DNA of 64,000 nt, taken from an uncultured Gammaproteobacteria bacterium. GTDB taxonomy: Bacteria; Patescibacteriota; Microgenomatia; Levybacterales; GWA1-39-11. Below the pieces are notes generated by a model, which was not told the DNA's origin, ran no database searches, and saw nothing but the letters and a program-made list of their open reading frames with translations. The stretch spans positions 64,557 through 128,556 of the forward strand of contig CAYPEN010000003.1 in assembly GCA_964409875.1 (NCBI GenBank), written 5' to 3'. Positions 2,614-63,694 of this stretch are shown here, one piece after another; positions within the stretch are counted from its first letter, which is position 1, and each line of letters starts with the position of its first letter. A program made the translations under genes and the position numbers.

Positions 2614-3631
<1,018 letters not shown>

Positions 3632-6870: not shown

Positions 6871-7401
6871 TTAAGCCACTTTTGAGTCTAAATTATTAAA
6901 TAATGTCACAAACGGTGGGTTTATCCGTGCACCGGTCTGGTGGCATAGTATCTCAATTGGTACCCCTCCATTTTTAGGAATTACTTTTACCATACCATCA
7001 TTGGCAGCCATCCATTCGTGTTCGGGGTCTGGGTGTGGTGGATCTGTCTCAACACCAAAACTCTCATCTTCGTTAATTGATCCAACTGCTTTACCAACTA
7101 CTTCTTGCCACCTCTGAAATTGCTTTTGATACCTTTCAAGCAAGGGAAGAGAGACTAAGTCGCTATTGTCTATATCAAATCCTACTCTTACGTCCACATC
7201 TTTTCTCTTGTCAGGCTGTTCTTTTACTACAGTTCCGCCTACTGCAAGCATAAATCCGCTTATTCCAAGCTTTTTTGTTGTTTGCATTAATGCATCGCGC
7301 AATGTGGAAACGTTTCTCTTGTTGTCTTCTCCTATGCTGGTGAGGTATGTTTCAGGGTCCCTTTCTTGGGAACTTACTACTATTTCTTGGCTTTCACTCA
7401 T
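6871..7401 (-). CDS. Hypothetical protein (possible minimal nucleotidyltransferase-like GS..DxD motif)
   Basis: 176 aa. GISGFMLAVGG...DVDVRV resembles a nucleotidyltransferase motif, but I recognise no clear family. Confidence 0.5.
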   Translation of the reverse strand: MSESQEIVVSSQERDPETYLTSIGEDNKRNVSTLRDALMQTTKKLGISGFMLAVGGTVVKEQPDKRKDVDVRVGFDIDNSDLVSLPLLERYQKQFQRWQEVVGKAVGSINEDESFGVETDPPHPDPEHEWMAANDGMVKVIPKNGGVPIEILCHQTGARINPPFVTLFNNLDSKVA

Positions 7402-15907: not shown

Positions 15908-16099
15908 GCGTTTATAATAGCACAAAAGACACTATTATTTGCTGTTTTGAGGCCATTGACTGACGATGTTCTTGTTGGTAGAATAGTTGAACCAAAGATT
16001 GAAGATTTTGGGGTGAAGCCAACTATTGCGCTACGCGCTGGGGTGGCATTCAAAGCTCTGAAAGAGCTTTTCATCCACCCCAAAAAATTTTATTTTTTT

Positions 16100-16173
16100 G
16101 GGGTGGTAGCTCAGTTGATTAGAGCGCTTCCCTGTCACGGAAGAGGTCGCGGGTTTGAGTCCCGTTCACCCCG
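16100..16173 (+). tRNA. tRNA-Asp (GTC)
   Basis: Folded by hand as a cloverleaf: acceptor GGGGTGG/TCACCCC, anticodon loop CTGTCAC. No encoded CCA. Confidence 0.9.
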
Positions 16174-16270
16174 CAAAAAAGCGTTGGGGTAATACAAACC
16201 GGTCACGGAAGATGTCGCGTTGTTAGCTTTGCTAACCAGCAAGCTGGAATGAGTCCCGTTCACCCCGCAA
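16174..16270 (+). repeat. Degenerate partial copy of the tRNA-Asp 3' half (CACGGAAGAtGTCGCG...GAGTCCCGTTCACCCCGCAAAA) with a ~30-nt insertion
   Basis: Direct comparison with the tRNA at 16130-16180. The final 23 nt are identical. Confidence 0.8.
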
Positions 16271-16968: not shown

Positions 16969-17016
16969 AGTTTTTCATAAAAATATATTTCCCGTGTGTT
17001 AAAATTGCAATTAAGC

Positions 17017-17157
17017 GGGAGTAGTTCAGTGGTAAGCTGCATTAAATGCATCTTGAAATTGCATCGCAATTTTAAGTAAGCTTGCCACCTCACATTAAAA
17101 ATTAAGCGGGAGTAGTTCAGTGGTAAGAAAAGCTTGCCACCTCACATTAAAAATTAA
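17017..17157 (+). repeat. Two tandem units of a tRNA-Gly 5' fragment (GCGGGAGTAGTTCAGTGGTAAG) each followed by a shared spacer (AAGCTTGCCACCTCACATTAAAAATTAA), directly abutting the intact tRNA-Gly
   Basis: Direct repeat inspection. Unit 1 carries an extra ~40-nt insert. Confidence 0.85.
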
Positions 17158-17229
17158 GCGGGAGTAGTTCAGTGGTAGAATGCTTCCTTCCCAAGGAAGA
17201 GGTCGCCGGTTCAAATCCGGTCTCCCGCT
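17158..17229 (+). tRNA. tRNA-Gly (CCC)
   Basis: Cloverleaf: acceptor GCGGGAG/CTCCCGC, anticodon loop TTCCCAA, T-loop TTCAAAT. Confidence 0.9.
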
Positions 17230-31619: not shown

Positions 31620-31809
31620 GAACGTAGTGAGGGACGGGAGCTCAATGGCGAACGAAGTCAAGCTTGCTTGACGAAGTGTCTCATTGAGCAGCATGTACCC
31701 AAAACTCCGACCCTAATTTTACCAAATTCAACCTCATATACGCAAATGGGGCGTCAATTTGACAAAAAGTGATACTTTTACCATACTAAAGAAGAAGGGA
31801 GGTGAGATT

Positions 31810-48419: not shown

Positions 48420-48597
48420 AATCTTATAGGTGATATTTGATGGTTAATAATTGATAGAAAAAAGTTTAATTAATTTAACAAAAAACTATACTAAATTTAT
48501 ACGAAAAATATACGAAGGTTGTCAAGAGATGCAATGTGTAACAAACTATAGCAACTTTGAATTGGCTTCTCGATTTCCCATCCTTTAGCCTCAAAAG

Positions 48598-63010: not shown

Positions 63011-63039
63011 TTGAGTAGAAGCGAGCAATTTGGTAAAAT
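63011..63039 (+). promoter_or_regulatory. Promoter for tRNA-Arg (TTGAGT-17-TAAAAT)
   Basis: Hexamers by eye. Same TTGAGT -35 as the tRNA-Glu promoter. Confidence 0.45.
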
Positions 63040-63067: not shown

Positions 63068-63139
63068 GCCCCCATAGCTTAACGGATAGAGTACTTGGCT
63101 TCGAACCAAGTGATAGGGGTTCGATTCCTCTTGGGGGCG
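63068..63139 (+). tRNA. tRNA-Arg (TCG)
   Basis: Cloverleaf: acceptor GCCCCCA/TGGGGGC, anticodon loop CTTCGAA. Confidence 0.85.
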
Positions 63140-63171
63140 CAGATAAGTATTAACCTGTGATTAATATTTGG

Positions 63172-63289
63172 AATGGCTAAAAGAGTTTGGTTATAGAATA
63201 ATTGTGAATGGGCGGCTAAACAAGTTTGGCCACCCAATAAGTGTGAATAGGGCGGCTAAACAAGTTTGGCCACCCAATAAGTGTGAGTA
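63172..63289 (+). repeat. Three tandem ~39-nt units (GGGCGGCTAAACAAGTTTGGCCACCCAATAAGTGTGARTA; first unit degenerate), each beginning with the 5' end of the adjacent tRNA-Lys
   Basis: Direct inspection. Units 2 and 3 are identical except for 1 nt. The tRNA-Lys 5' end GGGCGGCTA starts every unit. Confidence 0.85.
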
Positions 63290-63361
63290 GGGCGGCTAGC
63301 TCAATGGTAGAGCAATTCCCTCTTAAGGAATCGGTTCAGGGTTCGAGTCCCTGGCCGCTCA
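63290..63361 (+). tRNA. tRNA-Lys (CTT)
   Basis: Cloverleaf: acceptor GGGCGGC/GCCGCTC, anticodon loop CTCTTAA. Confidence 0.9.
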
Positions 63362-63424
63362 CCCAGCTAAGCTGGGTGGCAGCCCGCTTAGCGAGCTCAC
63401 TGTGATATTATCAATTAATGCACT

Positions 63425-63694
63425 ACGTATACATTCTTTTTTCACAAAAAGATAAACTCCTTATATACTGGTTTTACAAATGATCTTAAATCTCGTTTAA
63501 ACAAGCATCAAAATGGTTATGTGGCAGCTACAAAAAACAGAAGACCTCTTTCTCTAATATATTACGAGGCTTACAGTAATGAAGGTGATGCCAGAAGAAG
63601 AGAAACATACTTAAAAGGAGGTAAGGGAAAATCAGAATTGAAGATTCAGCTTGGTGAGACATTTATTGAAATTGGTTATGCAAAAAGAAGGTAA
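63425..63694 (+). pseudogene. Small GIY-YIG nuclease family protein with ACG where the ATG start is expected
   Basis: Translation gives TYTFFFHKKINSLYTGFTNDLKSRLNKHQNG...RRRETYLKGG, the classic ~90-aa GIY-YIG family. No ATG, GTG or TTG precedes it in frame after the upstream stop. Confidence 0.55.

Follow-up and report, generated by a model that had tools for sequence, protein, structure and literature searches.

Bacterial minisatellites, or variable-number tandem repeats (VNTRs), change in copy number by slipped-strand mispairing. At the tyrT locus of E. coli, in work ascribed to Egan and Landy in 1978, a unit of 178 bp is said to be repeated about three times downstream of tRNA-Tyr, each copy carrying the last 19 nt of the tRNA. 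Minihelices derived from tRNA, and external guide sequences, are likewise reported to be substrates of RNase P, in studies credited to McClain, Guerrier-Takada and Altman in 1987 and to Forster and Altman in 1990. In organelles, tandem duplication and random loss leave tRNA remnants behind, for instance in the gecko and mantis mitogenomes (PMC4223735, PMC4860592), and partial tRNA genes are left by integrative elements (van der Gulik et al, 2023; PMC9897764).

Here, we describe an array of tRNA-derived units in the 150-nt spacer between a tRNA-Arg(TCG) and a tRNA-Lys(CTT) gene, located in a 64-kb window (the whole stretch of DNA that was analysed; 40.5% G+C, with six tRNA genes according to ARAGORN and Rfam). 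With a probability of roughly 60%, we take the array to be a copy-number-variable tandem repeat of tRNA stubs, which would be leftovers of gene duplication, transcribed within the pre-tRNA and kept because their two arms are locked to each other. Close homologues of the proteins encoded in the window bear names that assign it to Candidatus Levybacteria (Patescibacteria). In a literature search, no account of leader stubs of this kind in Patescibacteria came up. The features are collected in Table 1.

Table 1. Features of the Arg-Lys array and of the related tRNA-Gly and tRNA-Asp loci in the window.
Feature	Coordinates	Strand	Basis
Promoter-like site (TTGAGT, 17-nt spacer, TAAAAT, TG extended -10), upstream of tRNA-Arg	63011..63039	+	sigma-70-type scan
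tRNA-Arg(TCG)	63068..63139	+	ARAGORN; Rfam tRNA 66.8 bits
Start of native Arg-Lys spacer, AGATAAGTATTAACCTGTGATTAATATTTG	63140..63170	+	sequence
U0, decayed unit	63171..63209	+	sequence, folding
U1: hairpin 63210-63235 (GGGCGGCTAAA-CAAG-TTTGGCCACCC); linker 63236-63249 (AATAAGTGTGAATA)	63210..63249	+	
U2: hairpin 63250-63275; linker 63276-63289, abutting tRNA position 1	63250..63289	+	
tRNA-Lys(CTT), intact; unit 5' arms are copied from its first 9 nt	63290..63361	+	ARAGORN; Rfam tRNA 68.1 bits
tRNA-Gly(CCC)	17158..17229	+	ARAGORN/Rfam
Gly array: unit 1 17015-17105, unit 2 17106-17157; each starts with tRNA-Gly positions 1-20, hairpin GTGGTAAG/CTTGCCAC	17015..17157	+	
Asp units before tRNA-Asp (16100-16173): first 16010-16039 (GGGGTGA...), second 16040-16099	16010..16099	+	
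Near-full-length tRNA-Asp copy, decayed, downstream of the gene	16186..16267	+	

The first nine nucleotides of tRNA-Lys(CTT), GGGCGGCTA, are found at 63210, at 63250 and at the tRNA start itself, 63290, and nowhere else in the 64 kb on either strand. The first two occurrences open the 40-nt unit U1 (GGGCGGCTAAACAAGTTTGGCCACCCAATAAGTGTGAATA) and its neighbor U2, which differs from U1 by one base (A to G at 63287, giving AGTA, not AATA, at the end). Upstream of both lies U0 (GAATGGCTAAAAGAGTTTGGTTATAGAATAATTGTGAAT), which has diverged, agrees with U1 at about 27 of 39 positions (~69%) and lacks GGGCGGCTA at its start. Thus, of the three tandem units proposed in an earlier note on this DNA, two are near-perfect and the third is decayed. 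The head-to-tail order that the same note described, with the last unit running into the intact tRNA-Lys, is borne out by the sequence and by Tandem Repeats Finder (TRF), which returns 63197-63298 with a period of 40, 2.6 copies, 95% matches and a score of 183. A unit consists of a 26-nt hairpin and a 14-nt linker, AATAAGTGTGA(A/G)TA, that recurs three times in the window and may represent a shortened copy of the native 5' flank at the spacer start (ATAAGT..TGTGA.TA). The array is no assembly artefact of this contig: a separate Logan assembly of the same strain agrees up to and including U0 before it stops within U1, and independent assemblies of relatives have homologous arrays. A look-up with the C-terminal ORF of the GIY-YIG gene downstream found no other assembly on record that spans the repeat.

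Each Lys unit can fold as GGG.GGCTAAA-CAAG-TTTGGCC.CCC, with 10 bp, one of them a U.G pair, and one C.A mismatch (-14.8 kcal/mol and z -2.6 for U1; z -4.3 for the whole Arg-Lys spacer). The 5' arm is a copy of the acceptor 5' strand of the tRNA and the 3' arm, TTTGGCCACCC, resembles the acceptor 3' strand; compared as TGGCCACCCA with the real tRNA-Lys 3' end TGGCCGCTCA, it differs at two positions. Even the decayed U0 retains a 9-bp hairpin (63173-63181 with 63186-63194), in which one G-C pair has become A-U by a double change, one mismatch has been repaired and two G-C pairs have become G.U. Among units from other tRNAs and species, 16 of 16 fold with the copied tRNA 5' end as their 5' arm. 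Over nine distinct Lys stubs, 83% of the cells are paired, as against at most 43% in slid controls, and both sides have changed at three pairs. The inner stems of the Asp stubs, folded one by one and left out of the pair counting as the MAFFT alignment had mis-set them, have four different sequences, all of which pair. Similarly, a longer type of Lys unit, made of tRNA positions 1-20 and an inverted arm, has the inner stem AAGG/CCTT in locus L002 and AAAA/TTTT in L023. Taken as a sign of whether the hairpin acts as sense-strand RNA or as DNA, G.U and A.C mismatches favor neither, since the Lys stem has both kinds (U8.G and C4.A). A 38-nt Lys unit type (L013, L025) has 12 paired columns, and Lys units overall have 11-12. 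The tail behind the 3' arm is usually ACCA in relatives (L013, L010, L002, L015, L025) and ACCCA in the window.

The architecture extends to other tRNA genes of the window. The companion array before tRNA-Gly reported in the earlier note is real: the first 20 nt of the gene occur at 17015, 17106 and 17158, and TRF gives a period of 52 with 100% identity. An extended -10 element, TGTTAAAAT (16997-17005), lies upstream of the entire array. In these units the core-like CTTGCCAC pairs instead with a D-loop segment, GTGGTAAG. The 3' half of the Gly unit, AAGAAAAGCTTGCCACCTCAC, is closer to the 3' half of the Lys unit in L012, AAGGGAAACCTTGCCATCTCAC, than to the 3' end of tRNA-Gly itself, which hints at the exchange of a common module or at convergence, and keeps the idea of a shared module alive. 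The tRNA-Gly(CCC) of the window differs strongly from the tRNA-Gly(CCC) at the same locus and in the same flanks in L026 (3419-3490; CTP synthase 95% identical), and likewise from those of L027, L028 and L030. In L030, upstream of the resident tRNA-Gly, a remnant of the window type consists of positions 5-16, a 50-nt hairpin insertion and positions 21-30 (~3060-3142). It looks as if one tRNA-Gly allele had been swapped for another at this locus.

At tRNA-Asp, the second unit encloses an 8-bp inner hairpin in an acceptor-like stem, GGGGTGG/CCACCCC (-24 kcal/mol, z -5.1), and a promoter-like site (15956-15984) lies upstream of both units. Part of that promoter region, TGGTAGAATAGTTGA (15970-15995), matches tRNA-Asp positions 5-19, TGGTAGCTCAGTTGA, at 12 of 15 positions, which may be chance (151 of 1000 shuffles). 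The decayed copy downstream of the gene has lost its D-arm, carries an insertion of ~28 nt in the T-arm and retains its 3' 19 nt intact; neither ARAGORN nor Rfam calls it a tRNA. Candidate stubs upstream of tRNA-Lys(TTT), tRNA-Arg and tRNA-Glu were rejected as individually non-significant (58, 93 and 565 of 1000 shuffles, respectively). The leader of tRNA-Lys(TTT) (31620-31700, minus strand) forms a long hairpin containing GCTCAATG/CATTGAGC. Elsewhere in the window, an AT-rich tandem repeat lies between divergent ORFs at 48445-48516 (TRF period 22, 3.1 copies, 77% matches).

The earlier note had regarded TTG(G)CCACC as a core common to the spacers and possibly functional, and had raised the question of a transcription start in each unit. 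This core does not stand alone. In the Lys units it is the 3' strand of the hairpin (TTGGCCACC), pairing with the acceptor 5' strand GGG(C)GGCTAAA, and no enrichment before tRNAs is seen: it occurs only inside units and in one chance match at 7105, and is absent upstream of the other four tRNAs of the window. Also TTGCCACC, AAGCAAAGCTT and GGTAA..TTGCC are, like TTGGCCACC, neither enriched nor dispersed in the 64-kb window, and in the collected loci they occur only in tRNA stubs or at chance level. This speaks against a protein-bound DNA palindrome of the operator or iteron type, and against a dispersed REP- or MITE-like element, even though the units are imperfect palindromes and the AAGCAAAGCTT core is found in several units and in a 21-nt tandem repeat of L030. 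The arms differ from tRNA to tRNA, so the units have no one protein site in common, and we consider an explanation of this kind very improbable.

Could each unit instead duplicate the tRNA promoter and transcription start, and thereby raise tRNA-Lys expression? The units do contain native 5' flank together with tRNA position 1, and their AT-rich linkers abut position 1. However, a scan with a sigma-70-type consensus found no such site in 63141-63289, a -35 element at TTGGCC or TTGCCA would place the -10 element inside the tRNA, and the core is already explained as a hairpin strand. Near the scanned tRNA genes, promoter-like sites were found only upstream of tRNA-Arg and of the Asp array. The site before tRNA-Arg, whose TGgTAAAAT/TAGAAT element recurs before tRNA-Arg in relatives, is likely the start of an Arg-Lys co-transcript. 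A separate transcription start per unit is unlikely, because this is the only promoter-like site for the array, and we give tandem promoters very little credence. There are no terminator-like sites at the Lys or Asp arrays; the Lys hairpins are followed by AATAAG, not by a T run.

Related Levybacteria offer a view of the same spacer in other genomes. The loci compared (numbered with an L) were retrieved via the neighboring glycosyltransferase, with an exact tRNA-Lys core pattern in species-representative genomes and with an array pattern in metagenomes; the metagenome scan added L025 as the sole extra locus. The earlier note had looked to sister genomes for conservation of the repeats, and homologous units are indeed present at the Arg-Lys locus, in zero to four copies. 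The spacer holds no unit in L024, L016, L014, L018 and L021 and no clear unit in L022, one unit in L013, L010, L012 and L020, two in L015 and L023, and four different units in L002/L003/L006. The unit of L013 is 38 nt long (GGGCGGCTAAGCAAAGCTTGGCCACCAAATTGTGAGTC); a similar unit of this length is present three times, each time identical, in the metagenome contig L025. In L010, the 65-nt unit combines a hairpin of the 38-nt type with an internal 22-nt duplication, and in L012 and L020 the units contain tRNA positions 1-20 or 1-16 followed by a near-inverted arm. Several of the MAG records (L013, L015-L022, L024) show the synteny typical of Levybacteria and near-identical genes but bear the title "uncultured Gammaproteobacteria bacterium", probably through mislabeling.

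Similar units accompany other tRNA genes of these relatives. Acceptor-like hairpins lie upstream of tRNA-Asp in the window, L026, L028 and L030 and are lacking in L027, where the promoter is directly followed by the tRNA; tRNA-Gly has a unit of this kind in L028, with L026 and L027 lacking Gly units; tRNA-Arg(TCT) has one such unit in L023; and L018 and L030 have longer pseudo-copies into which hairpins are inserted. The window and its Levybacteria relatives together supply 38 distinct tRNA loci, which are partly orthologous and include one retrieved with the array pattern. The 5' 9-mer of the tRNA recurs within 200 nt upstream in 16 of them, downstream in one and as reverse complement in none, whereas the 3' 9-mer recurs downstream in five and upstream in none. 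Thus, of the common module that the earlier note preferred to coincidence, the shared architecture stands, with its tRNA 5' copies, hairpins and constraint, and a free-standing core motif does not. Just after a LysM gene, L030 contains four tandem copies of a 21-nt unit (GATAAAGCAAAGCTTGACTAC; ~2920-3000). The 22-nt stretch duplicated within the 65-nt Lys unit of L010 and L002 is formed by the same core as in this repeat, AAGCAAAGCTTGA(A)CT, to which GTCAAGCAAGCTTGACTTCG in the tRNA-Lys(TTT) leader of the window (31650-31680, minus strand) is similar.

What keeps the two arms of a stub complementary? Between species, and over compared sequences that are few and related, the loop and 3' arm of the Lys stub are 73-100% identical, against 47-59% for the flanking intergenic DNA and 66-80% for tRNA-Arg. 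The identity of the stub lies far above that of its flanks, and some constraint must therefore act on the part of the hairpin that is not copied from the tRNA 5' end. Equilibrium folding of one construct, the spacer with the tRNA as bare RNA, predicts an acceptor-stem probability of 0.82 for tRNA-Lys with its real leader. Scrambling the stub 3' arms, which sets the 5' copies free, lowers the predicted value to 0.20, and scrambling the 5' arms, which frees the anti-strands, lowers it to 0.02. A free 5' copy would compete for the 3' acceptor strand of the real tRNA, and a free 3' arm would sequester its 5' end, but within a stub the two arms would neutralise each other. The complementarity of the arms may thus persist because an arm on its own would, by this prediction, pair wrongly with the real tRNA. 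Under such a lock, a stub would be lost only by deletion of a whole unit or by joint decay of both arms, as in U0. Clean deletion of a unit is allowed by the direct repeats, and the relatives without units fit it.

The same conservation could equally mean a positive function. The hairpins might form a functional RNA module of pre-tRNA leaders and spacers that mimics an acceptor stem or minihelix; the module could be a processing signal with one RNase P cut per unit, could be released as a small RNA, or could act as decoy or regulator of a factor that binds acceptor stems. The hairpin is at least as conserved as the neighboring tRNA-Arg, its stems show compensatory changes, and the architecture is common to Lys, Gly, Asp and Arg genes. 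Moreover, the 12 paired columns of L013 and L025 equal the length of an acceptor and T-stem stack, and ACCA usually follows. Yet many related species lack units at the same locus (L024, L016, L014, L018 and L021 for Lys, L027 for Asp, L026 and L027 for Gly), so the units are dispensable; the copy number ranges from 0 to 4, and U0 is decaying. Searches of Rfam 15 across the window at the gathering threshold, and across the two arrays at E<=10, return only tRNAs and chance matches. The best non-tRNA matches at the arrays, miRNA models for example, have E-values of at least 0.013 and lie far below the gathering score, and the Lys units themselves match no tRNA in ARAGORN or Rfam, even at E=10. 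With conservation accounted for by the predicted mutual locking of the arms, we regard a functional module as unlikely.

A bolder form of this idea, which we consider quite doubtful, is that Levybacteria, and perhaps other Patescibacteria, maintain a family of minihelix RNAs mimicking the acceptor stem in their leaders and spacers. These would be excised unit by unit by RNase P and would act as decoys or regulators for a factor that recognises the acceptor end, such as a processing enzyme, an enzyme for CCA addition or repair, or a toxin that targets acceptors. The 3' halves of these RNAs (e.g., AAG-loop-CTTGCCA-YCTCAC, common to Gly and Lys units) could spread between tRNA loci through recombination within the conserved D-loop of the tRNA.

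How might stubs that are leftovers of duplication have arisen? In the reading that we prefer, the 5' flank and tRNA-Lys would have been duplicated in tandem, and the extra copy would then have lost its interior, its acceptor-stem complementarity surviving as the 26-nt hairpin. Whole units would be gained or lost by slipped-strand or unequal recombination. Having no promoter of their own, they would lie in the transcribed spacer of the Arg-Lys precursor, and RNase P, cutting at tRNA position 1, would remove them with the 5' leader. In L013 and L002, units and tRNA alike have the flank ATTGTGAGT(C/A/G) in front of them, as does the tRNA in L024, where units are absent. A copy of the native 5' flank is thus part of each unit, as a tandem duplication across the 5' boundary of the gene would predict.

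The Lys unit of L006/L002, GGGCGGC(T/C)A-AGC-AGAGC-T-TGGCCGC-AAAGAA, can be read as the least derived, with tRNA positions 1-9, what is left of the D-stem, the 3' acceptor strand and AAAGAA, the trailer of the gene itself. In L006, 95 of 2000 shuffles equal its alignment with the tRNA 3' end and trailer; CCACCCC and an A-rich trailer are retained in the Asp units (21 of 2000), and the Gly unit reaches 134 of 2000 against its own tRNA 3' end and trailer. For the 3' half of the Lys unit in the window the same comparison is non-significant (764 of 2000). The decayed tRNA-Asp copy and the pseudo-copies with hairpin insertions in L018 and L030 are possible intermediates. On the strength of these unit-to-tRNA alignments and intermediate stages, we favor internal deletion of a tandemly duplicated gene as the origin. 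The units may also have arisen by inverted duplication of the tRNA 5' end, and the few telling positions are divided: C71 in the window units fits such a duplication, and the G opposite T8 and the T71 kept in longer units fit a deletion origin.

The other end of tRNA-Lys(CTT) has a history of its own. L002 is a relative with a glycosyltransferase 93% identical; directly against its tRNA 3' end lie (122-2543) a gene for a large serine recombinase, with Resolvase, Recombinase and Zn-ribbon domains, and an HTH gene. The sequence past this end differs between L002, L006 and the window, which therefore marks it as an integration hotspot. Mirror arrays are found on the 3' side, in L006 (1-190), L020, L023, L025 (310-390) and L015, where the last 16-17 nt of the tRNA (GAGTCCCTGGCCGCTCA) and a trailer of 30-50 nt are repeated head-to-tail; the L020 array has a period of 52 and runs into a masked gap. 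In the window, 57 nt downstream of tRNA-Lys(CTT), lies a small GIY-YIG nuclease gene (63418-63694) with a frameshift at ~63455, which after manual repair of the frame matches Pfam GIY-YIG at 1e-17. An ORF judged by eye to be GIY-YIG-like lies just upstream of tRNA-Lys(CTT) in L021.

The units could accordingly be viewed as att-site scars, fragments left by integrative elements that target tRNA-Lys. The hotspot with its abutting recombinase gene is compatible with such scars, as are the 3'-end fragments that recur downstream of the gene, and prokaryotic partial tRNA genes stem mostly from integrated elements (PMC9897764). However, the 5' units are ~14 nt apart, between two tRNA genes separated by 150 nt, and they hold both acceptor strands, amplified as identical tandem copies, and neither an element nor an integrase lies between them. 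Viral contigs also contain no match to the 20-nt 5' end of tRNA-Lys. We hold such scars to be a highly improbable source of the 5' units.

If the stubs are indeed leftovers of duplication, they would represent a bacterial non-coding remnant kept by structural entanglement with its parent gene: decay of one arm alone would, by the folding prediction, misfold an essential tRNA, and strong conservation in very small genomes would be explained without a positive function. Should the functional reading hold, the hairpins would be a new class of tRNA-mimic RNAs in a phylum whose RNA biology is little explored. The stubs mark tRNA-gene turnover and integration hotspots in Patescibacteria. They also risk annotation as regulatory motifs or tRNA fragments, and they break short-read assemblies, as the Logan contig ending inside U1 illustrates.

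In conclusion, the Lys array shares features with each of the described systems and departs from each. As in VNTRs, adjacent units are identical and the copy number is 0, 1, 2, 3 or 4 among close relatives; unlike VNTRs, the unit is anchored on a gene boundary and structurally tied to the product of that gene. Like tyrT, this is a tandem repeat in a bacterial tRNA operon with units that carry a terminal piece of the adjacent tRNA, but the tyrT repeats are on the 3' side, are longer, lack an acceptor-stem hairpin and reportedly encode a small peptide. As predicted by folding, the unit resembles an RNase P minihelix in its helix of 11-12 bp starting with the acceptor 5' strand, with ACCA next in most relatives, although pair 4-69 of the Lys stem is a C.A mismatch, the tail in the window is ACCCA, a T-loop is lacking and cleavage is only hypothetical. 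Partial tRNA genes (PMC9897764) are, like the units, non-functional fragments identical to one end of a neighboring tRNA, and tRNA-Lys is also an integration site on its 3' side; in contrast to att fragments, which are single-copy with a whole element between fragment and gene, the Levybacteria units are tandem, ~14 nt apart, and contain both acceptor strands and no element. Nearest among described phenomena are these partial tRNA genes and the mitogenome remnants. In the latter, a tRNA gene and its flank are duplicated head-to-tail, and the extra copy degenerates into a pseudogene remnant within the spacer beside the intact gene. The Levybacteria units are distinguished as a 26-nt hairpin of two acceptor strands, re-amplified as a 40-nt minisatellite, which would be part of a bacterial pre-tRNA transcript and shows cross-species conservation with compensatory changes.
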